Notes: generated from the letters alone by a model not told the origin. Numbered from the stretch's first letter, positions 3,172 to 46,855 are shown. The stretch is 64,000 bases of DNA from an uncultured Candidatus Saccharibacteria bacterium (GCA_964409035.1 CAYPBQ010000001.1:111638-175637), one strand, 5' to 3'. Numbers and translations: made by a program.

Positions 3172-5382
3172 ATGGATGAGAAAGTAATAGACTCAATCTT
3201 TTTAAAACCATACAACCCAGGCGATGTTGAGGAGGCCCTCTACAAGGATTGGGAGGCTTCTTCTTTTTTTAACCCTGATGTGTGCAAAGAGAGGGGTATT
3301 GCAAACCCAGCACTTAAGCCCTTTTCGATTGTACTTCCTCCCCCTAACGTAACCGGGACCCTCCACATGGGTCATGCTGCCATGCTTGCCACAGAAGATA
3401 TTTTAGTCAGGCATGCGCGTATGAGCGGTAGACCAACACTGTGGCTTCCGGGCACTGATTCAGCGGCAATCGCAACCCAAAGCAAGGTAGAGAAAGAAAT
3501 ACAAAAGAAGGAGGGTAAAAGCCGATACGACTTAGGGAGAGAAGAACTACTCAAGCGAGTCGGCGAATTTGCAGAGGAAAGCAAGGCGACAATTATTTCT
3601 CAGACTAAAAAAATGGGAAGCAGCCTTGATTGGTCTCGATATGCGTACACCATGGATGAATCACGCTACCGCGCCGTTATGGAAGCCTTTGTACGTATGT
3701 ATGAGGCGGGACTCATCTACCGTGGTCACCGTATTGTTAATTGGGACCCTAAGGGGCAAACGACTATTTCTGATGATGAGATTGTGTACATTGAAGAGAA
3801 AACTACGTTCTACCACTTTCAATATGGCCCATTTGTTATTGGCACCGCCCGCCCTGAAACTAAATTTGGCGACAAGTATGTGGTGATGCACCCAGATGAT
3901 GAGCGTTATAGCGCATACATCCACGGTCAAACAATTGAGGTTGAATGGATAAATGGTCCAATTACCGCAACCATTGTTAAAGACTCCTCTATTGATATGG
4001 CATTTGGTACTGGAGTGATGACTATTACCCCATGGCATAGCGCAATCGACTTTGACATTGCTGAACGATATCAACTTGAAAAGGAGCAGATAATTGATGA
4101 GCGCGGTAAACTCCTCCCTATCGCTGGAGAATGTGCAGGAATGAAAATAGCAGATGCGCGAGCGCGTGTTGTTGAGCTACTGCGCGCAAAGGGGTTAATC
4201 GTAAAAGAGGAGCCATATACCCACAACATAGCCACCGCAGAGCGCACTGGCGCGACCATTGAGCCTCAAATTAAGGAGCAGTGGTTTATTGATGTTGATA
4301 AGCAATTTACCATTCCCCACTCAACCATTGTTGGTATTCCAAGCGGATCACAGACCTCTCTCAAAACGCTAATGAAGCAGTGCGTTGAGAGTAAAGAAAT
4401 AAGCATTCTCCCCGACCGATTTGAAAAAGTCTATTTTAACTGGATAGATAATTTACGCCCATGGTGCATATCACGGCAAATATGGTTTGGACACCGCATC
4501 CCCGTTTGGTACAAGGGTAGCGAGACGTATGTAGGAGTTGAGGCGCCAACCGATGATGGATGGGAGCAAGATCCAGACACCCTTGATACATGGTTTTCTT
4601 CAGGACTATGGACGTTTTCTACCCTTGGGTGGCCTGATAAAACAACTGACCTAGCTACATACCACCCCACCAGCGTACTTGAAACCGGTTACGACATTCT
4701 CTTCTTCTGGGTAGCGCGTATGGTACTCATGAGCACGTTCCACCTCGGGGAGGTACCGTTTAAGACGGTATATCTCCACGGCTTAGTGCGTGATGCAAAA
4801 GGTCAAAAAATGAGTAAATCTCTTGGAAATATTATTGATCCAGTAGAACTAATAGAGAAGTATGGCGCTGATGCAGTACGGCTTTCACTCATTATTGGCG
4901 CAGCGGCAGGTAATGACACAAAGCTTTCTGAAGATAAGGTGCGTGGCTACAAGTATTTTGCTAATAAGCTATGGAATGTGGCGAGGTTTATTTTTGAGAA
5001 TACGCAGGATACTAGCATAGATGAGCAAGCCACCCTCTCTACTCTTGATGCAGAGTACCTACACACCTTTACTGAGCTTGCTAAGGAGATTGAGAGCGAT
5101 ATAGAAAACTTTAGGCTATATTTAGCTGCTGAAAAGTTATACCACTACTCTTGGGACACTCTCGCATCGCAGATACTTGAAGAGAGTAAAAAGCTATTCA
5201 CAGAAGGTGACAAAGCGCTTGTGGCATCTAGAAAGCAATTGTTGCTTGTCATCATTCGTGACTTGTTAAAGTTACTCCACCCGTTTGCTCCTTTTGTTAC
5301 AGAAAAAATTTGGCAGCATTCACCGTTTAAGCAACCATCTCGCCCATTTATCATGGTTGAGACCTGGCCTGTTCACAACTAA
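3172..5382 (+). CDS. valS: Valine--tRNA ligase
   Basis: 736 aa. Class I HIGH motif (LHMGHAAM) and KMSKS (KMSKSLGN). Editing-domain and anticodon-binding regions are typical of ValRS. It is short because the C-terminal coiled-coil is missing. Confidence 0.93.
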   Translation: MDEKVIDSIFLKPYNPGDVEEALYKDWEASSFFNPDVCKERGIANPALKPFSIVLPPPNVTGTLHMGHAAMLATEDILVRHARMSGRPTLWLPGTDSAAIATQSKVEKEIQKKEGKSRYDLGREELLKRVGEFAEESKATIISQTKKMGSSLDWSRYAYTMDESRYRAVMEAFVRMYEAGLIYRGHRIVNWDPKGQTTISDDEIVYIEEKTTFYHFQYGPFVIGTARPETKFGDKYVVMHPDDERYSAYIHGQTIEVEWINGPITATIVKDSSIDMAFGTGVMTITPWHSAIDFDIAERYQLEKEQIIDERGKLLPIAGECAGMKIADARARVVELLRAKGLIVKEEPYTHNIATAERTGATIEPQIKEQWFIDVDKQFTIPHSTIVGIPSGSQTSLKTLMKQCVESKEISILPDRFEKVYFNWIDNLRPWCISRQIWFGHRIPVWYKGSETYVGVEAPTDDGWEQDPDTLDTWFSSGLWTFSTLGWPDKTTDLATYHPTSVLETGYDILFFWVARMVLMSTFHLGEVPFKTVYLHGLVRDAKGQKMSKSLGNIIDPVELIEKYGADAVRLSLIIGAAAGNDTKLSEDKVRGYKYFANKLWNVARFIFENTQDTSIDEQATLSTLDAEYLHTFTELAKEIESDIENFRLYLAAEKLYHYSWDTLASQILEESKKLFTEGDKALVASRKQLLLVIIRDLLKLLHPFAPFVTEKIWQHSPFKQPSRPFIMVETWPVHN

Positions 5383-5391
5383 TAGCAATTC

Positions 5392-6150
5392 TTGCGCTAT
5401 ACTTTATACATGGAGCTAGCCGCTACGTGGCTTTCTGTTATTGGCGCATCACCCGCTGGGGCTTACTCCTATGCCTTTATAGGAGGTATAGTACCCGCAC
5501 TCCTTTGGCTACTGTTTTTTTTGCGTGAAGACAGACTCCATCCTGAACCACGCAAGTTGCTTATCTTTACCTTTATTGCAGGTATGTCATGTGTCATCTT
5601 TGTACTTCCTGTACAGCGATTTGCCTATGGGTTTTTGACTGGTGGCTCTCTATTGCTCGCGTGGGCGTTTATTGAGGAGCTATTCAAGTACTGGGCAGCA
5701 TATCTTGTGGTGTTGTGGCAATCGGCAGTTGATGAACCGATGGATCCTGTTATCTATATGATTACTGCAGCCCTAGGTTTTGCCGCTCTTGAAAACGCAC
5801 TGTTTATGTCTGGGCCTCTACTAAGCGGTAATCCTACTGAGGCACTTATTACAGGTAATCTTCGCTTTATTGGAGCAGCACTTCTTCATGTGGTTGCGTC
5901 AGCATCCATTGGTATGGCACTTGCGCTTTCATTTTATCGAAAGAGCAAATATAAACGATTGTATTTTTTAACCGGCTTTATCCTTTCTGTCTTATTGCAT
6001 ACGATATTTAACTTTTTTATAATGGAGAGTAACGGAGGAGAGGTACTTATCGTCTTTTCTTTTGTCTGGATTGGTGTCATTCTATTACTACTCCTCTTTG
6101 AGAGAATAAAGCTTATCAAAAAACCATTACCCACAAGCATCTTTAAATAA
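5392..6150 (+). CDS. PrsW-family intramembrane metalloprotease-like membrane protein
   Basis: 252 aa with multiple TM segments. EExxK-like motif (FIEELFKY) and HxxxN-like motif (LLHTIFNFF), as in PrsW/CPBP-type proteases. Confidence 0.45.
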   Translation: MRYTLYMELAATWLSVIGASPAGAYSYAFIGGIVPALLWLLFFLREDRLHPEPRKLLIFTFIAGMSCVIFVLPVQRFAYGFLTGGSLLLAWAFIEELFKYWAAYLVVLWQSAVDEPMDPVIYMITAALGFAALENALFMSGPLLSGNPTEALITGNLRFIGAALLHVVASASIGMALALSFYRKSKYKRLYFLTGFILSVLLHTIFNFFIMESNGGEVLIVFSFVWIGVILLLLLFERIKLIKKPLPTSIFK

Positions 6151-6156
6151 CATATT

Positions 6157-6657
6157 ATGGCAAGAGATAAACGATCATTTTTTGAACGACTAACTGGCAC
6201 CGTGAGTACGGATGAATATGAAGAATTTGGAGATGACTTTGTTCCGCAACAAACCGCTGTCACAACAGCAAAAAAGGCACGAGTAGTACCTACAGAAGAG
6301 CCCGTATATGAAGAACCAGAACCTGAAGAAGAAGGTCAATTATCTGTAGATGTGTATCAAACTCCAACCGACATTGTCATTAAAGCAGTTGTTGCTGGTG
6401 TAAAGCCTGATGAGCTAGATGTCGCAATTACAAGGGACATGGTTACCATCAGAGGAGAACGACAAGAGGTAAAGGAAGCAACTGATGAAAACTATTTCCA
6501 CCAGGAGCTTTACTGGGGTAGATTCTCACGAACCATTCTTCTCCCCGCAGAAATTGAGGTAGAAGCAGCGGAGGCGCAGGAAAAGCACGGCGTACTCGTT
6601 ATTCGACTTCCAAAAATTGATAAGGACCGTCAAACAAAGTTAAAGGTAAAGAGCTAA
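6157..6657 (+). CDS. Hsp20/alpha-crystallin family small heat shock protein
   Basis: 166 aa. The alpha-crystallin domain pattern (LSVDVYQT...DIVIKAVVAGVKPDELDVAI...VTIRGER...GRFSRTILLPAEIEVEAAEAQEKHGVLVIRLPK) and size fit the Hsp20/alpha-crystallin family. It sits 6 bp after the preceding gene, so it is probably co-transcribed. Confidence 0.85.
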   Translation: MARDKRSFFERLTGTVSTDEYEEFGDDFVPQQTAVTTAKKARVVPTEEPVYEEPEPEEEGQLSVDVYQTPTDIVIKAVVAGVKPDELDVAITRDMVTIRGERQEVKEATDENYFHQELYWGRFSRTILLPAEIEVEAAEAQEKHGVLVIRLPKIDKDRQTKLKVKS

Positions 6658-40945: not shown

Positions 40946-41257
40946 TTAGGTAAGTAATACTATCGCAGTAGCATATTCACCATCGTGACTTATTGATACA
41001 CTCATTATCTTGCTATCATCTACGCGCAAAAAAGGAGCGCCACTTACTTCATGATCTACTTCAAGCAATAGCCAATCGATTTTTTTACCTACCGCCTTAC
41101 AGTACGCCTCTTTAACGGCTATGTATCCCCCAGCCCGAAGAGAATTTCCTTGAATTGATTGTAACTCTGCATCTGTAAACACTCGAGCACACTCTTCACT
41201 ATTTGAAAGTAGCCGCTCTACCCTTCGTATGCTGATTAAATCTATTCCTACCCGCAT
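40946..41257 (-). CDS. acpS: Holo-[acyl-carrier-protein] synthase (4'-phosphopantetheinyl transferase)
   Basis: 103 aa. MRVGIDLISIRRVE...IAVKEAYCKAVG is the AcpS fold signature. Confidence 0.75.
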   Translation of the reverse strand: MRVGIDLISIRRVERLLSNSEECARVFTDAELQSIQGNSLRAGGYIAVKEAYCKAVGKKIDWLLLEVDHEVSGAPFLRVDDSKIMSVSISHDGEYATAIVLLT

Positions 41258-41295
41258 TGGTAGTAGTATACCAGAGCTGTGCTATGCTTTTTGAC

Positions 41296-41745
41296 ATGGC
41301 GATTATTCGTAACAAAAAGGCATCATTTAACTTCGAACTTCAAGAGAGATTCGAGGCGGGTATTGAGCTTTTTGGCCATGAAGTAAAGGCAATAAAAGCC
41401 GGAAAAGCACATCTAGAGGGAGCTCGGGTACTTGTAAGAGGGGGCGAGGTATATCTTGTGGGTGCAACTATATTTGCATACCAAGAAAGTAATAGCCCAA
41501 AGACATATAACCCAATGCGCAACAGACGACTGCTTCTCCACAAAAAGGAAATGCTTCAGATAGCAAGCGCGGAAGCCACCAAAGGGTTGACAGTAGTACC
41601 AATTTCAATGTATAATAAGGGTAGAAAGTTGAAGCTTGAAATTGCTATTGCTCGTGGTAAGAAGATGGCAGACAAACGAGAGACAATAAAAAAGCGTGAC
41701 ACTAATAGAGACGTTGAGCGCGAGACAAAATTCAAACTCAAATAA
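41296..41745 (+). CDS. smpB: SsrA-binding protein SmpB
   Basis: IRNKKASFNFELQERFEAGIELFGHEVKAIKAGKAHLEGARV... with a basic C-terminal tail. The start is at MAIIRNKK; the longer ORF from 41257 overlaps acpS. Confidence 0.88.
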   Translation: MAIIRNKKASFNFELQERFEAGIELFGHEVKAIKAGKAHLEGARVLVRGGEVYLVGATIFAYQESNSPKTYNPMRNRRLLLHKKEMLQIASAEATKGLTVVPISMYNKGRKLKLEIAIARGKKMADKRETIKKRDTNRDVERETKFKLK

Positions 41746-41836: not shown

Positions 41837-42218
41837 GGGGATGATTGGCCTCGACAGTGAGTATGTGTTGCATAGTGTGCGAGTTCGTGTGAGGTGACAC
41901 GGTAAAAACACCTCAACCAATACGTGCTACAAAACTTCGCACGGCAATTCTTTCACCTTTCCAGATGAAGGACTTTGCACTCGCTGTAGCCTAAGGCTCG
42001 CGACATCCTACAGGGCGTTGTCTGATAGCCTTGTAACGGTGTAATACCATCAGAACCGCAAGTAGAACGACGTCACTCTGCTTGCTAAATAATGACGCTA
42101 TACGGTGTTGGCTTTTGACGAATTTTCTATCAACACCACGAACCAACAAATTCGCCAAGACTTCGTAGACTCACTATGCACTCCTCTCTGGATGCGGGTT
42201 CGATTCCCGCCATCTCCA
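41837..42218 (+). ncRNA. ssrA: tmRNA (SsrA)
   Basis: The 5' GGGGAUGAUUGGCCUCGACAG... acceptor strand pairs with the 3' ...GCGGGUUCGAUUCCCGCCAUCUCCA (T-arm plus acceptor). The internal tag frame ends ...FQMKDFALAVA-UAA. It lies immediately downstream of smpB and is followed by a terminator hairpin at 42231-42255. Confidence 0.85.
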
Positions 42219-42259
42219 CAATTACAAAAACCTTCCCGCTTTCGCGGGAGTTTTTGTTT

Positions 42260-42433
42260 GTGGAGTGGAGCGAGAGAACTTCTTCTCTCGCGTCGGGAAT
42301 CGAAAGGCGCAGCGATGTTTTGTCCGCGTCCAAGCGGACAAAACCGCGAGCCTAGACGAAGCGCGCTTACTATCTTTTTGAGCGCAGCGATAGAAAGTAG
42401 TTAGCGACGCATCGTCGATCCGCCATCTCCACA
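42260..42433 (+). repeat. tmRNA-3'-end-associated structured module, copy 1
   Basis: It begins GTGGAGTGGAG, then the hairpin cgagagaacttcttctctcg, then GTCGGGAATCGAAAGGCGCAG. It contains an 11-bp hairpin gttttgtccgc-gtccaa-gcggacaaaac. It ends CGATCCGCCATCTCCACA, a degenerate copy of the tmRNA 3' end. The module ends can pair with each other. Confidence 0.6.
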
Positions 42434-42474
42434 AATTAAAACAATACCGCCCTTTGGCGGTTTTTGTTTTTACT

Positions 42475-42633
42475 GTGGAGTGGAAGACGATGCCTTCGCA
42501 TCGTCTGTCGGGAATCGAACGGCGGAGCGTTATACGTACGACTAAAAGGAGTGCGTATCGCGAGCCGCGTCCAACAACACTTAACGAATGCAATGAGTTT
42601 AGTGATTGTGGGACGATTCCCGCCATCTCCACG
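42475..42633 (+). repeat. tmRNA-3'-end-associated structured module, copy 2
   Basis: It is preceded by the terminator ccgcc-cttt-ggcgg-TTTTTGTTTTT. It begins GTGGAGTGGAAG, then the hairpin agacgatgc-cttc-gcatcgtct, then GTCGGGAATCGAACGGCGGAG. It ends GGGACGATTCCCGCCATCTCCACG. Confidence 0.6.
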
Positions 42634-42751
42634 TAATAACACTAATTCGAACTATTTGGTCGCAGAGCGACTGTTCTGTGTACTTGGTACGCGCCGAGTG
42701 CGTGGGACAGGCATACTAAGAAAAAAGGGTAATTTTTGTTATACTCTGCAC

Positions 42752-43279
42752 ATGAAATCATCGACCATCGAATCCCCTTCCTATGTTATAAGACAATTTA
42801 AGACGAGTGATGCCGAATTGTGGCAAATGTGGGATATTGATCCTGAAGTGCAGGCATTTATGCCGGAGCCGTTTAATAAACCACAAGACATTGAGGAGCA
42901 GTACGCATACATCAAAGCATGTGAAGCTGATGAAGAAGGATACTACTGGTCAATAGAAACGAGGGGTGGAGTCACGATTGGTACCATCGCGCTCACAGAA
43001 TGCAATGACTACCATGGCGTTGCTAATCTCGGTATCGTGATCGGAAATAAAAACTATTGGGGCAAAGGGGTTGCAACGGAAACCATCACTGCTCTTATCG
43101 ACTATGCATTTACAAATCTAAACCTTTTCTATATTAGCGCTGAAGTTGAGGAAGGAAATGTTCCGATGGTGAATGTTCTGGAAAAAGTCGGGTTCAGACA
43201 AGACGGTTTATTTGAATCAGCTCGGGTAAAAAATGAAAAACGAATCAATGTTCACCATTTCAGTATTGTTAAGCGATAA
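42752..43279 (+). CDS. GNAT family N-acetyltransferase (RimJ/RimL-like)
   Basis: The start is at MKSSTIESP (42752). The ORF's upstream 96 codons overlap the repeat modules and are an artefact. Motifs are IGTIALTECNDYHGVANLGIVIGNKNYWGKGVATE and FYISAEVEEGNVPMVNVLEKVGF. Confidence 0.7.
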   Translation: MKSSTIESPSYVIRQFKTSDAELWQMWDIDPEVQAFMPEPFNKPQDIEEQYAYIKACEADEEGYYWSIETRGGVTIGTIALTECNDYHGVANLGIVIGNKNYWGKGVATETITALIDYAFTNLNLFYISAEVEEGNVPMVNVLEKVGFRQDGLFESARVKNEKRINVHHFSIVKR

Positions 43280-43782
43280 TGAATAGTTATATGAAAAGCA
43301 CAAAAATAATCCCTATTAAACAACGAGACGCCAGTGCCTGCGGACCTACCAGTATTGAAATGACTCTGAAATACTTTGACGTACCACATACAGTCGCAGA
43401 TATTACTAGAGTAACTAACTATAAAAAAGAAGGTGGCATATACAACAAACAACTGGTGAGCGTGCTACAACACTATGGCCTTAAGACAAAAGTTTTGAAG
43501 AATACCTCTTGGGAACAACTGATGGAACTAAATACCAAAGATTCCGTGATAATTCTTTCTTGGATGCTTGATGGCTACATTGGACACCTTAGTGTTTTGG
43601 ATAATGTTGATAAAGACCATATCTATCTCGCGGAACCTACAACTGGAGAAATATTAAGGGTAGGTAAGATAAAGTTTCTCAGGCTCTGGTTAGACTACGA
43701 GGCTAAAGCTGAAGTACCACTGTTCCCCGAATCAAAGTCTGACATTCAACTGAGGTGGTTGTGTATCGCATCGAAACCATAA
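43279..43782 (+). CDS. Peptidase C39-like (papain-fold cysteine peptidase) domain protein
   Basis: 167 aa. The start overlaps the GNAT stop (ATGA). The putative catalytic Cys is in DASACGPTSIEM and the His in YIGHLSVLD. Confidence 0.5.
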   Translation: MNSYMKSTKIIPIKQRDASACGPTSIEMTLKYFDVPHTVADITRVTNYKKEGGIYNKQLVSVLQHYGLKTKVLKNTSWEQLMELNTKDSVIILSWMLDGYIGHLSVLDNVDKDHIYLAEPTTGEILRVGKIKFLRLWLDYEAKAEVPLFPESKSDIQLRWLCIASKP

Positions 43783-43790
43783 GCAAAGAG

Positions 43791-43823
43791 AAAACCCAAA
43801 AGCCAATGAAGGCCTTGGGTTTT
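43791..43823. terminator. Bidirectional terminator between convergent peptidase and ureohydrolase genes
   Basis: aaaacccaa-aagccaatgaaggcc-ttgggtttt. Confidence 0.65.
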
Positions 43824-43839
43824 CAAGTTGTGTCCTGGG

Positions 43840-45102
43840 TCACTTTTTCAGACTTACCCAATGCAGTACCTTCATGAGGATATGGAAGACCAGGCTGGTC
43901 GTCATATCATCACGATCGAGTGCTGGACTAAGTTCGACAACATCTATGCCGACAACCTGGTTGCGCTCGATAACCGCACGCAACAACTTCAGCAGCACCT
44001 GCGGAGTCATGCCGAGCGGTACAGGAGTACCAGTTCCAGGAGCGAAAGATGGGTCGAGCACATCAACGTCGAAGCTGATATAGCACTTCATCCCTTTTGG
44101 CAACCTAGTTGCAAGCACATTAGCCAGCTCCTCTTCGATGACGACTTGAGTTGTTGTCTGACACCTTTCTTCACCAAGAGGAGCACCGGCAAAACCACGC
44201 ACTCCAAACTGGAGCAAATGGGCTGTTGGGTTTTCATGCACCACTCGTCGCATGACGTTGCCATGATGATGCTCTGAACCAACCTCCCACTCCCCCATGT
44301 CTGTGTGCGCATCCAGATGAATGATGACTATCTCTCCATGGACTTCTGTACACGCACGAATGAGTGGCGCAGAGATTGAGTGGTCTCCCCCAATGAACAC
44401 AGGAAATGCACCGCTCCGATGTGACAATAAAGCGCCCCGATAGCAACGCTCATAGACAGTCGCTAGAGATTCCCCTGTTCGATACGCAACATTGCCCAGG
44501 TCTCCAAACGGAACTCCTTCGAGGATCACAGTCCCGAGGTCAGCGTTATGCCAACCACGGTTTCTTCTGGTAAAGATATCCCGCTCGTAAGCCAGAAATT
44601 TCGCTGAAACTTCACGGAGTCGATCCGGACCAAAGCGAGTACCCGGATTACCGGTCGCCGCCTGGTCGAGACATACTCCAGCCACAACGATTGTTCCTTC
44701 TTCGAGACTACACACATCGACTGCAGGCGAGTACACAAACTGTATTCGCGCACTAACAAATAAGGTTTCCCTATCGACAACCAGCGGCTCTTCAGCTTTT
44801 CCGTCTACTACTTCAATTAGAAAGAAAGCTTCAGCAAACGCAGCAATAATCAATAGAAATTCCTCGTACGGTTCACCCCCAGCCACTCCAAGCTCCATCG
44901 CGGCTTCATGCGTGCTTTTAACTACGCGGAAAGCTGCGAGGATCTTCAAGGACTCCTCAGTCAGAGAAAGCCGATGACCAGTCCGAGTGTTGTGTACCAC
45001 AACACAATTCTCGCCATCTTCACTTTCAAGCATGAGGTGTCTTGATACAACATACCAATCAGTACTCATGACTCTCCTCTCTTGTGCCCACAGCATGGGC
45101 AC
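43840..45102 (-). CDS. Arginase/agmatinase/formiminoglutamase-family ureohydrolase with N-terminal PqqD-like (RRE) domain; candidate peptide arginase
   Basis: Ureohydrolase metal-binding motifs GGDHSIS, HLDAHTD and SFDVDVLDP. The N-terminal ~110 aa (YVVSRHLMLESEDGENCVVVHNTRTGHRLSLTEESLKILAAFRVVKSTHEAAMELG...YEEFLLIIAAFAEAFFLIEV) follow the PqqD/RRE pattern. Confidence 0.7.
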   Translation of the reverse strand: MPMLWAQERRVMSTDWYVVSRHLMLESEDGENCVVVHNTRTGHRLSLTEESLKILAAFRVVKSTHEAAMELGVAGGEPYEEFLLIIAAFAEAFFLIEVVDGKAEEPLVVDRETLFVSARIQFVYSPAVDVCSLEEGTIVVAGVCLDQAATGNPGTRFGPDRLREVSAKFLAYERDIFTRRNRGWHNADLGTVILEGVPFGDLGNVAYRTGESLATVYERCYRGALLSHRSGAFPVFIGGDHSISAPLIRACTEVHGEIVIIHLDAHTDMGEWEVGSEHHHGNVMRRVVHENPTAHLLQFGVRGFAGAPLGEERCQTTTQVVIEEELANVLATRLPKGMKCYISFDVDVLDPSFAPGTGTPVPLGMTPQVLLKLLRAVIERNQVVGIDVVELSPALDRDDMTTSLVFHILMKVLHWVSLKK

Positions 45103-46175
45103 ATGTGCCGTTTCCTGAATTTGCGGAAGTTGATATCGTAGGTACGAAAATCCAACTCCGCAACCTTATTAGTCATCGTTGGTTTCGAGAAACCAGTAAT
45201 GACCTTCACCACATCCAATACATGATAGTTTGCGGTGATCGCACTAATGGCAGCGATATTTCCACCTTTAATGTGCGTATTAGTAACTGTCAATTGCTGA
45301 TACTCAGCTCGATGAAGCTGTTTATCAAGTGCGTGCTCATAACAGTACCAACACGCTGATTCTCCAGGAATGACCGTTGGTCCGATAAAGCTTAAGTGTC
45401 CATCATACCCTCCGCAGAGAATGTGAGGCACTTGTAGCTCAAAACCAACTTCCGTGACAATCCGATTAACCACATCTGTACTCGGATCATCCGCACAGGA
45501 GATAATCAAACTGCTACCTCGCATCCCAACAAGGCAGTCTTGTGGGGACACAACTTGCCGTGCAACACCCTGGACTGAGATTCCAGCATCAATGGCACGG
45601 AGTTTTCGTTCTGCCACTTGAACCTTTAGGGATCCGACGTCATCAACATTGAACAAACACTGTCTGTTCAAGTTTGATATTTCCACCACGTCTGGATCGA
45701 TGAATGTAAAGTTACGGACACCAGCTAGGGCAAGACCTTGGGCAACCCAAGTACCAATCCCTCCCAAACCGATTATCGCAACCCGCGCTATATGTAAACG
45801 CTCTTGCATTGCTTCGCGGGATTGGGTTCTTGTCTCAAACTCCGCAAAGAAATTGCGCTGGGTTACAAATTTATCCTGGCAAATAACGGTAGGATGCTTT
45901 TTGGTAGCCAGTATCCGACTCTTTTGGAGTATTGATACCAGTCGCCGGACTTCTATTATTGGGAGGCCTGCTTTCCTTGCTATCTCTTCGATTGGATGCA
46001 AACCATCAAAATATTGCAAGCAACCAAAAGCCTCTTTGTTAAGTTGGAACGGCAGGACAACACTACTTGCATTGAAGAGAAAGTTCACTTCATAGACATC
46101 TCGTACACTTCTGTACAAGACAGAGATACTGTCTTTGATCTGTGGAAACACTGCGTGGACTCCTTTCATAGGCAT
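45066..46175 (-). CDS. ThiF/MoeB/E1-like adenylating enzyme with N-terminal PqqD-like (RRE) domain (MccB-like architecture)
   Basis: Rossmann motif VAIIGLGGIGTWVAQGLALAGVRNFTFIDPDVVEISNLNRQ. Zn-binding CxxC pairs (CWYC...CPCC). The N-terminal ~110 aa (VLPFQLNKEAFGCLQYFDGLHPIEEIARKAGLPIIEVRRLVSILQKSRIL) closely match the PqqD/RRE consensus. It overlaps the ureohydrolase gene by 37 nt. Confidence 0.75.
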   Translation of the reverse strand: MPMKGVHAVFPQIKDSISVLYRSVRDVYEVNFLFNASSVVLPFQLNKEAFGCLQYFDGLHPIEEIARKAGLPIIEVRRLVSILQKSRILATKKHPTVICQDKFVTQRNFFAEFETRTQSREAMQERLHIARVAIIGLGGIGTWVAQGLALAGVRNFTFIDPDVVEISNLNRQCLFNVDDVGSLKVQVAERKLRAIDAGISVQGVARQVVSPQDCLVGMRGSSLIISCADDPSTDVVNRIVTEVGFELQVPHILCGGYDGHLSFIGPTVIPGESACWYCYEHALDKQLHRAEYQQLTVTNTHIKGGNIAAISAITANYHVLDVVKVITGFSKPTMTNKVAELDFRTYDINFRKFRKRHMCPCCGHKRGES

Positions 46176-46240
46176 TCCGAACCCTTCTGTACAAGACAGG
46201 GATACTGTCTTTAGCCTGTGGAAACACTGCGTGGACTCCT
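46108..46240. repeat. 57-bp tandem direct repeat (period 76 bp) duplicating the E1-like gene 5' end into its upstream region
   Basis: Copy A is at 46108-46164, inside the codons for MPMKGVHAVFPQIKDSISVLY. Copy B is at 46184-46240. They differ at 4 of 57 positions. Copy B is out of frame and lacks an ATG. Confidence 0.8.
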
Positions 46241-46264
46241 ATTGTTAATTTCAAAAAACAAGAA

Positions 46265-46552
46265 GTGATTCTATGCGAAAAGTACTACACATCGGAGTCA
46301 TGTCAAGGCAAGCTACTGGAGATTGACACAAAAGAGAATAGCCACTACTCTTCTAATAAACAAGTGGATAGGCTGCTTGTTCCCAACCCGCATACGGAGA
46401 ATCCTATGCAAAAGAGCGTTCTGTCGACCGACTCAACTCCCCAAGGCAATCCGGCAGCCACCGTAGTCGATCTGCGGAAAGTGAGCATCAAGTCGTTGCC
46501 GCGTCGTCACAGCGATGTCTACATGCGGGGACTGCGACGTCCGCGCGCTTAA
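46265..46552 (+). CDS. Hypothetical small protein (GTG start; candidate RiPP precursor, speculative)
   Basis: 95 aa, divergent from the E1-like gene. The C-terminus is Arg-rich (...SLPRRHSDVYMRGLRRPRA). It is followed 14 nt later by a strong +-oriented terminator. Internal Met codons would allow a shorter peptide. Confidence 0.3.
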   Translation: MILCEKYYTSESCQGKLLEIDTKENSHYSSNKQVDRLLVPNPHTENPMQKSVLSTDSTPQGNPAATVVDLRKVSIKSLPRRHSDVYMRGLRRPRA

Positions 46553-46565
46553 TCGGACGACGGCC

Positions 46566-46605
46566 ATTGCCTGGGACGGAGACCACAACGTGTGGTTTCC
46601 GTCCC
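46566..46605 (+). terminator. Strong nested-hairpin intrinsic terminator
   Basis: gggacgga-gaccaca-acg-tgtggtt-tccgtccc followed by tttttcacttt. The U-tract is only on the + strand. Confidence 0.7.
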
Positions 46606-46638
46606 TTTTTCACTTTCCCTTCGGGCGCTTTTTGTTTT

Positions 46639-46811
46639 GTGGAGTGGAGCGAGCAAACTGCTTTGCTCGCGTCGGGCATCGAAAGGCGCAGGCATATCGC
46701 GAAGCGATGCCGAGCCGTGGTCAAGAGTGCTTAGTATTTTTAGAGCAACGCGAATAAAAATAGTTAGCAACTAGTGACCGATTCCCATAAGACGATTCCC
46801 GCCACCTCAAG
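46639..46811 (+). repeat. tmRNA-3'-end-associated structured module, copy 3 (4.4 kb from copies 1 and 2)
   Basis: GTGGAGTGGAG, then the hairpin cgagcaaactgctttgctcg, which has compensatory changes relative to copy 1's cgagagaacttcttctctcg, then GTCGGGCATCGAAAGGCGCAGG. The interior is homologous to copy 1 (tatttttagagcaacgcgaataaaaatagttagcaac against tatctttttgagcgcagcgatagaaagtagttagcgac). It ends cgattcccataagacgattcccgccacctcaag, a degenerate tmRNA 3' end. Confidence 0.6.
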
Positions 46812-46855
46812 ACAAAAATGAAATATCCTCCCCAAGTTGGTGTAATAAGAGTAGT

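Follow-up and report, generated by a model that had tools for sequence, protein, structure and literature searches.

The 64,000-nucleotide (nt) window analyzed here, one strand of DNA from an uncultured Candidatus Saccharibacteria bacterium (GCA_964409035.1 CAYPBQ010000001.1:111638-175637; positions are counted from its first letter), was found to carry a real, conserved cassette of the type that makes peptides synthesized on the ribosome and then modified post-translationally (RiPPs), with a novel pairing of enzymes. A ureohydrolase of family PF00491 and an MccB-like E1/ThiF adenylating enzyme, each with a RiPP recognition element (RRE) predicted at its N terminus, are encoded beside a short precursor peptide with an Arg-rich C terminus. 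A probability of about 0.7 was assigned to the reading that the cassette is a compact RiPP biosynthetic system, seen so far only in Patescibacteria. The nearest database relatives are labeled Candidatus Kaiserbacteria, Paceibacterota, or Patescibacteria.

In the window, two gene pairs converge, and the small precursor gene lies at the far end. The plus-strand pair encodes a GNAT N-acetyltransferase of the Acetyltransf_3 type (42749 to 43279; 176 amino acids [aa]) and a stand-alone papain-fold cysteine peptidase of the C39 type (43279 to 43782; 167 aa). The minus-strand pair encodes the RRE-fused ureohydrolase, a putative peptide arginase (43840 to 45069; 409 aa, with the RRE at approximately 44803 to 45069 and the catalytic domain at approximately 43867 to 44691), and the E1-like enzyme (45066 to 46151; 361 aa, with the RRE at approximately 45897 to 46151 and the adenylation domain at approximately 45096 to 45818). 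The precursor gene (46406 to 46552, plus strand) encodes 48 aa, MQKSVLSTDSTPQGNPAATVVDLRKVSIKSLPRRHSDVYMRGLRRPRA, and is preceded by a GGAG ribosome-binding site at 46396, 7 nt upstream.

One line of evidence that the two enzymes act together is their conserved linkage. From contig look-ups and from scans with a profile of the E1-like enzyme against one genome per species and against Joint Genome Institute (JGI) metagenomes, with redundancy removed, the E1-like and ureohydrolase genes were found adjacent in 36 nonredundant Patescibacteria loci, at 31 to 92% identity. On the contigs of three homologues of the ureohydrolase, with identities of 54%, 51%, and 36%, an E1-like gene was in each case found immediately upstream. 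In the window, the stop codon of the E1-like gene overlaps the start codon of the ureohydrolase gene by 4 nt (ATGA), and the identical overlap was observed in loci L001, L002, and L005 to L008. In one protein of 775 aa (P0210), a single polypeptide has the order ThiF-RRE-arginase, which would be either a Rosetta-stone fusion supporting a shared pathway or the product of a stop codon lost at the ATGA junction. When the neighboring open reading frames (ORFs) were clustered, only the C39 peptidase and GNAT families recurred beside the pair.

The precursor provides the second line of evidence. A precursor ORF lies beside the enzyme pair in almost every locus, including relatives with enzyme identities down to ∼31%, and 29 distinct precursors adjoining the pair could be aligned without gaps over their last 26 residues, giving the pattern K[VL]xIxxL…[ML]R[GT][LV]RR[RP]RA. 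Counted from the C terminus, the leader part contains K at position -24 (22/29), V or L at -23 (26/29), I at -21 (24/29), L at -18 (27/29), and D at -13 (22/29). The core then follows with M or L at -9 (26/29), R at -8 in all 29, G (24/29) or T (5/29) at -7, and L, V, or I at -6 in all 29. Arg occupies -5, -4, and -2 in 28/29 each, while -3 is R in 20 and P in 8; the last residue is Ala in 27 and Ser in 2, never Asn. The window precursor has the leader motif K-V-x-I-x-x-L and the core MRGLRRPRA, almost invariant across the family, and ends ...DLRKVSIKSLPRRHSDVYMRGLRRPRA. The adjacent short precursor with a conserved C terminus that characterizes RiPPs of ThiF-like adenylyltransferases was thus found, and the conserved core, being devoid of Cys, Lys, and Trp, offers only arginines as a source of a nucleophile.

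Precursors fell into two length classes, ∼45 to 56 aa and ∼28 to 33 aa. The gene usually lies immediately upstream of the E1-like gene and points in its direction; in L001 (...KLDLGKVKIVPLPRRNDDIYMRGLRRRRA), L003 (...PLDLAKVTIVRLPRRNDDVYMRGVRRPRA), and L005 (MRVNPKKLRIKKLGVKVDQAGLRTVRRRTA) it was found there on the same strand, followed in each case by a hairpin and T-run. A short precursor gene with a hairpin upstream of the enzyme gene, as seen in most loci, is also the arrangement of MccB-type clusters. In L021, L022, and L100 the precursor follows the ureohydrolase gene, and in the window and its four closest relatives (L009 and L067 to L069) it is divergent from the enzyme operon. A recent inversion was considered for this opposite orientation and rejected, as the orientation is common to all five members of the close clade and is thus a stable arrangement. 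Gene callers rarely report the precursor (none was called in L001 and a 30-aa gene was called in L006); precursors are mostly uncalled, and a search of a 5.8-billion-protein collection gave no precursor candidates. Three loci (L015, L088, and L092) contain the enzyme pair and C39 peptidase without a recognizable RRxRA-tailed precursor. There, a precursor that has diverged or been frameshifted may be represented by an opposite-strand ORF with LPRRTNVE in its sequence and YARGRWSVRKPT at its end.

The third line of evidence comes from the N-terminal domains. Both minus-strand enzymes have ∼100 extra N-terminal residues without a Pfam assignment, and a preliminary description of this DNA had presented these regions as homologous RRE-like domains of the PqqD pattern. 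The homology was borne out at the level of profile and fold, not at that of pairwise sequence: BLASTP between the two domains detected no similarity (E 0.64), while hhalign related them with a probability of 94.8% (E 5.5e-8, 54 columns). The E1-like domain profile matched PqqD chains weakly (E 0.006), and the ureohydrolase domain profile gave similarly weak matches, with an E value of 0.01 to the N terminus of TigE, a radical-SAM RiPP enzyme, and of 0.85 to TbiB1, a lasso RRE. A scan of NCBIfam for PqqD/RRE models was negative, and only 1/35 ureohydrolase N-terminal domains matched PF05402, with an E value of 0.12. In AlphaFold2 models (mean confidence, pLDDT, of 89.1 and 90.8), each of the two domains forms three strands and then three helices, as is typical of the RRE fold. 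Compared with known RREs, the E1-like model scored 9.2 with LynD, 8.9 with TfuB1, 8.4 with TbiB1, 8.3 with both ThcOx and PbtF-RRE, 7.9 with TigE, 6.9 with MccB, and 6.6 with PqqD. On the basis of these models, both domains are identified as RREs, a call that rests on predicted structure and not on PF05402. RREs are a hallmark of RiPP enzymes that act on leader peptides, and those of the cassette may bind the K[VL]xIxxL leader of the precursor.

The ureohydrolase-RRE profile found 56 representatives among 1.84 billion proteins, most of them 400 to 430 aa in length with the domain at the N terminus. The same RRE subtype was also observed fused to a sulfotransferase domain (PF13469) in a protein of 373 aa (P0238). 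In addition, PF00491 proteins of 381 to 397 aa (P0066 to P0073; loci L147 to L149) on Proteobacteria-type contigs have N-terminal extensions with a strand-then-helix pattern by eye. Their contexts differ from the cassette and contain no E1-like gene; in L148, an acyltransferase, three ORFs of 38 to 68 aa, an M50 peptidase, and ketosynthases lie near the N-extended gene. RRE-fused arginase-family enzymes may be more widespread. Fusions to arginase-family enzymes go unmentioned in a structure-based RRE survey from 2025.

The E1-like enzyme was matched to PF00899 (ThiF) above the curated Pfam threshold, with an E value of 3e-41. Among solved structures, a profile of 45 family members had its best match in MccB, with 190 bits (E 5e-55) and an alignment starting at profile position 52, far ahead of ThiF or MoeB (132 bits) and PaaA (130 bits), and the window protein alone ranked its solved relatives in the identical order, confirming the earlier assignment as MccB-like. 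Identity to MccB is ∼30% over the catalytic domain. In the alignment, the GLGGIG motif and the two Cys pairs do not vary, at least 90% of the sequences have NLNRQ and the CADDP Asp, and the family bears a distinctive PHILCGGYDGHLSF motif. The combination of an N-terminal RRE "peptide clamp," an E1 domain with ATP-binding residues, and a tetra-Cys Zn site is shared with MccB (PDB 3H5A/3H5N), PaaA, GrcB, EnfB, and IndF, as presumably is activation of the peptide C terminus. ThiF-like RiPP enzymes with an N-terminal RRE adenylate the C terminus of the peptide and close a ring through an internal nucleophile: GrcB uses Cys and forms a thiolactone, EnfB uses a backbone amide and forms an imide or amide, and IndF uses the Trp indole and forms an indolylamide (PMC12250964, PMC12150305). 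By analogy, the E1-like enzyme probably adenylates the C-terminal Ala of the precursor. It differs from GrcB, IndF, and PaaA in that its core substrate lacks a Cys, Trp, or Glu nucleophile, and from the MccB group in its strict pairing with a ureohydrolase, to which it is sometimes fused. Distant ThiF relatives from Firmicutes and Actinobacteria (L023 to L027 and L102) were rejected as family members; no ureohydrolase accompanies them, and they fall into different families of ThiF-like RiPPs. One of them, from Siminovitchia thermophila (L023, 36% identity), has a 21-aa ORF at 6552 to 6617, MKVTKKGEVIREKSCFCVACT, directly upstream and ABC-type genes nearby, resembling a separate ThiF-like RiPP cluster with a Cys-rich core.

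The ureohydrolase matched PF00491 with an E value of 9e-62, above the curated threshold, and no other Pfam family at E ≤ 1. The full binuclear-metal signature noted before was upheld: the Mn ligands H230, D253, H255, D257, D334, and D336, within the motifs GGDHS, DAHTD, and DVDVLDP, are invariant in 38 sequences, and the binuclear Mn center is complete. The closest solved catalytic domains are those of agmatinases (1WOG, E 7e-56; also 7LBA), which have the same metal ligands and align only from profile position 107 onwards. SpeB-type agmatinases are single-domain proteins of ∼300 aa without an RRE, occurring in a polyamine context, acting on a free small molecule, and having no link to a precursor or E1-like enzyme; the present enzyme, in contrast, has 409 aa with an RRE and is paired with an E1-like gene and a precursor.

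Two kinds of peptide arginase serve as precedents. With the OspR type (PF12640; landornamide, selidamides, FlmR/OhkR), the enzyme would share the reaction, from peptidyl-Arg to peptidyl-Orn and urea, together with the binuclear Mn center and the RiPP setting. An RRE-fused ureohydrolase had been described as the expected form of OspR-type chemistry, which proved incorrect: OspR belongs to PF12640, has no RRE, and recognizes its substrate in a homodimer cleft that is formed by an insert within the protein, Ser170-Ser234 (PMC10028609, PMC12703449), whereas only PF00491 and an N-terminal RRE were detected here. The closer precedent is KgrD, a PF00491 arginase that acts on peptide-bound Arg in enteropeptin biosynthesis (PMC12703449) and the only such PF00491 case found described. 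KgrD, compared here by its description, differs in operating in a radical-SAM sactipeptide pathway, in needing a thiomorpholine-modified substrate, and in lacking an E1-like partner. That the cassette enzyme converts core Arg to Orn is considered somewhat better than an even chance.

Two accessory families recur beside the enzyme pair. The C39 peptidase matched PF03412 with 44.4 bits against a cutoff of 22, and 26 sequences keep the motifs KQ..CGP and GH.S, in which the oxyanion Gln and the two catalytic residues, Cys and His, lie. The papain fold, the Gln/Cys/His residues, and the association with leader-bearing precursors are shared with the C39 domains of ComA and LahT. Those domains are parts of transporters, whereas the cassette peptidase is a stand-alone protein of ∼160 aa (167 aa in the window), not the N-terminal domain of an exporter cleaving after a double-glycine motif. 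It lies within 22 to 433 nt of the enzyme pair in 22/22 long-precursor loci versus 2/10 short-precursor loci. The peptidase thus tracks leader length and is a putative leader peptidase. The GNAT (PF13302, E 1.6e-28) adjoins the cassette in 10 of the 36 loci and in 5 of the 10 short-precursor loci. Among solved proteins, it is closest to two spermidine/diamine N-acetyltransferases, SpeG and PA3944 (E ∼2e-9), which we take to acetylate primary alkyl-amines, and it is a putative tailoring or self-protection enzyme.

From these data, we infer the substrates, the step order, the Arg-to-Orn conversion, and the fate of the acyl-adenylate as follows. The 48-residue precursor would be made with the leader K-[VL]-x-I-x-x-L and MRGLRRPRA as its last nine residues, and both enzymes would dock on it via their own N-terminal RREs. 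The Mn-dependent ureohydrolase would turn at least one core Arg into Orn with release of urea, and the E1-like enzyme would use ATP to adenylate the carboxylate of the C-terminal Ala. The activated C terminus would then be captured by a nucleophile. With no Cys, Lys, or Trp in the core and only arginines available, the most economical nucleophile would be the delta-amine of the Orn made by the arginase, giving a side-chain-to-C-terminus lactam; a nucleophile supplied by the partner enzyme would also explain why the gene pair is inseparable. The long leader would be cut off by the stand-alone C39 peptidase, and the SpeG-like GNAT would acetylate a free amine, for tailoring or self-protection. 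A precedent for the last step is provided by the selidamides, in which arginase-made Orn is N-acylated by a GNAT (PMC12703449). The Orn lactam specifically is a tentative part of the scheme and, taken on its own, somewhat doubtful.

Several observations weigh against this reading or parts of it. PF05402 (PqqD) did not match either full-length protein at E ≤ 1 in the Pfam scan, and this portion of the earlier RRE assignment did not stand. The ureohydrolase scored 182.1 bits with TIGR01230, the NCBIfam agmatinase equivalog, against a cutoff of 174.3 (residues 131 to 413 only); judged by sequence alone it would be labeled a free-substrate agmatinase, which calls for caution about the substrate. 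In L099 (3 to 719), the gene downstream of a family-type E1-like gene (44% identity, with the PHVLCGGYDGHLSF motif) encodes a sensor kinase in convergent orientation and not the ureohydrolase, on a contig that begins inside the E1-like gene. No GG or GA, as in the classical double-glycine site of C39 peptidases, occurs in a conserved register in the precursors. If the lactam were formed by the penultimate Orn, the ring would have nine members and be strained. As for function, an antibiotic role is unsupported because no exporter is present in the window's islet and a dedicated immunity gene is lacking, and the conservation of the core between very distantly related genomes suits a housekeeping, cofactor-like, or signaling function no less well than an antibiotic one.

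The alternative that survives best retains a RiPP but changes the chemistry: the E1-like enzyme might amidate the adenylated C terminus with an external amine such as agmatine or a polyamine, and the agmatinase-like enzyme might trim the added guanidino group in place of the core arginines, or the arginines might stay intact for binding of a target or enzyme. EnfB can amidate an activated C terminus with available external amines (PMC12250964). The agmatinase-like catalytic domain at the equivalog level, the polyamine genes near some loci, and the resemblance of the GNAT to polyamine acetyltransferases would all suit such a product. The RRE of the ureohydrolase is required under either chemistry and so does not tell the two apart. 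That four or five arginines of the core are nearly invariant has its simplest explanation if they are substrates, and the alternative chemistry is regarded as unlikely.

A microcin C-type "Trojan horse," with a nucleotide joined to the C terminus by a phosphoramidate, the GNAT as an MccE-like immunity protein, and the basic peptide as an uptake module, would account for MccB being the closest solved relative, with the same RRE, E1, and Zn architecture, and for a RimL/RimJ-type GNAT (PF13302) in the cluster. The C-terminal domain of MccE is such a GNAT, and it detoxifies processed microcin C. In the cassette family, however, the GNAT is present in only 10/36 loci, and unlike the microcin C cluster, the cassette has no MccC, MccD, MccE, or MccF genes; no MccC, MccD, or MccF homologues were found in the 36 loci, where only GNAT and C39 recur. 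The MccB mechanism proceeds via a succinimide formed from the carboxamide of a C-terminal Asn (PMC12250964), and with all 29 precursors ending in Ala or Ser, an N-P bond by this route is excluded and the MccB-type phosphoramidate chemistry cannot apply as such. A strictly co-conserved, sometimes fused ureohydrolase would also be left unexplained, making this explanation improbable.

Ordinary metabolism, in which a SpeB-type agmatinase for polyamines happens to neighbor a ThiF/MoeB activator of a sulfur carrier and the small ORF is irrelevant, would agree with the database names of the homologues, "agmatinase" (which arises because the score exceeds the TIGR01230 cutoff) and "molybdopterin-synthase adenylyltransferase," and with the presence, close to the L005 pair, of genes for two enzymes of S-adenosylmethionine (AdoMet), its decarboxylase and its synthase. 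It is contradicted by the RREs on both enzymes, which free-substrate enzymes lack and which solved agmatinases do not cover in the alignment; by the great rarity of the RRE-ureohydrolase architecture; by the absence of a ThiS/MoaD-like carrier gene with the pair; by the ThiF and MoeB scores, well below that of MccB; and by the precursor ORF, both the sequence and the position of which are conserved at 29 distinct loci. This explanation is given very little credence.

Tagging of the ubiquitin or Pup kind, with the E1 activating the C terminus of a small basic protein and the papain-fold peptidase processing or deconjugating it, is just as remote: an E1 fold, such a peptidase, and a small protein with a conserved basic tail are all present, but no E2 or JAB domain was found, the peptide lacks both Gly-Gly and the length that a beta-grasp fold needs, the peptidase is missing from most short-precursor loci, RREs are typical of leader-directed RiPP enzymes, and the ureohydrolase is given no role. 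The PADLOC E1-E2 models, from antiphage CBASS systems, matched only ∼100 residues of the generic nucleotide-binding Rossmann segment of the E1-like enzyme; none of the other three cassette proteins had a PADLOC match, and a full-length match to a defense protein was not obtained.

The genes of the preliminary description all exist, and their domain assignments (PF00491, PF00899, PF03412, and Acetyltransf_3) pass curated thresholds. The Arg-rich ORF, which could have lacked counterparts in related loci, is real, and, as noted before, no exporter, integrase, or dedicated immunity gene is present at the islet. Several gene boundaries had to be revised. Both enzyme ORFs had been said to begin with MPM and to overlap by 37 nt, which are artifacts of ORF calling. 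The E1-like homologues have 361 aa and start with MFPQIKD, corresponding in the window to the GTG at 46151 (VFPQIKD...), with an AGGAG site upstream; the ureohydrolase homologues have 409 aa and start with MS(T/I)D, placing the start of the window gene at the ATG at 45069 (MSTDWY...). The true overlap is the 4-nt ATGA. The precursor, reported as 95 aa from 46265, is the 48-aa product of 46406 to 46552, and the GNAT gene was corrected to 42749 to 43279. The false upstream MPM start of the E1-like ORF is due to a 76-nt tandem duplication, the upstream copy of which (46165 to 46240) is 88% identical to 46089 to 46164 and spans the ribosome-binding site and first ∼20 codons of the E1-like gene. 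The duplication is absent from L067 to L069 and partial in L009; it also yields an out-of-frame 54-aa ORF upstream of the E1-like gene.

Candidate regulatory signals were read from the sequence around the precursor. The strong terminator reported after the Arg-rich ORF is present as an intrinsic terminator-like hairpin on the plus strand (46573 to 46605) with a 15-bp stem, including nine G-C pairs, followed by TTTTT. A sigma-70-like promoter candidate for the enzyme operon (46282 to 46306, minus strand) consists of TTGACA, a 13-nt spacer, and TAGTAC, with TGTG preceding the -10 element. The spacer is shorter than the canonical 16 to 18 nt, and a consensus promoter scan did not pick up this candidate. 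It is kept upstream of the E1-like gene in L067 to L069, and the stretch upstream of the divergently oriented precursor gene adjoins it back-to-back.

The cassette lies just downstream of smpB (41257 to 41745) and the transfer-messenger RNA (tmRNA) gene (41837 to 42221). A unit of ∼215 nt, terminating in a copy of the tmRNA 3' end (CCGCCATCTCCAC), occurs in three copies. The first (42222 to 42442) directly follows the tmRNA gene; the second (42443 to 42642, plus strand) repeats that sequence and terminates in the 3'-end copy; and the third (46606 to 46820, plus strand) terminates ...CCCGCCACCTC. The second and third copies bracket the 4-kb cassette, resembling attL/attR scars, and would fit an insertion at the tmRNA gene; no integrase is present at the flanked cassette. 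Linkage to tmRNA was found in the window and its closest relative, L009, only and is thus not a trait of the family. In other loci, different neighbors were observed. A clade ∼54% identical to the window has a divergent TrmB-type regulator, a pyridoxal phosphate-dependent PALP enzyme, and a Zeta-toxin/AAA_33-like kinase beside the cassette in two genomes, and Peptidase_S51 genes lie near the cassette in L001 and L005; the coordinates noted for these neighbors are 4946 to 6503 and 1768 to 2280 in L001 and 4415 to 6507 in L003.

Targeted full-text searches of the literature (MccB with arginase and RiPP; ThiF-like with arginase; Patescibacteria RiPPs) returned nothing describing this combination, and neither arginase nor ornithine nor lactams come up in two reviews on ThiF-like enzymes from 2025. 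If the proposed reading is true, the peptide arginases would gain an RRE-fused enzyme from the classical arginase/agmatinase family, and the growing chemistry of ThiF-like RiPP enzymes would gain a new nucleophile or outcome. A leader-guided arginase and a C-terminus activator working on one short Arg-rich core would be attractive tools for making ornithine-containing or cyclic peptides. For annotation, the enzyme genes are now labeled "agmatinase" and "molybdopterin-synthase adenylyltransferase," and the precursor is mostly missed by gene callers.

To our knowledge, Patescibacteria, with their tiny genomes, have almost no characterized secondary metabolism, and a conserved, translationally coupled peptide-modification cassette is unexpected there; four genes and a 48-aa peptide provide a clonable entry. 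The system could conceivably represent a new RiPP class confined to the candidate phyla radiation and the first ornithine lactam made by an E1 enzyme, with a role that is physiological (host/symbiont interaction or RNA/ribosome binding) rather than that of a strain-specific antibiotic, a proposal we regard as speculative. Such a conserved physiological role would follow from the conservation of the core (MRGLRRRRA) across deeply divergent, genome-reduced bacteria.

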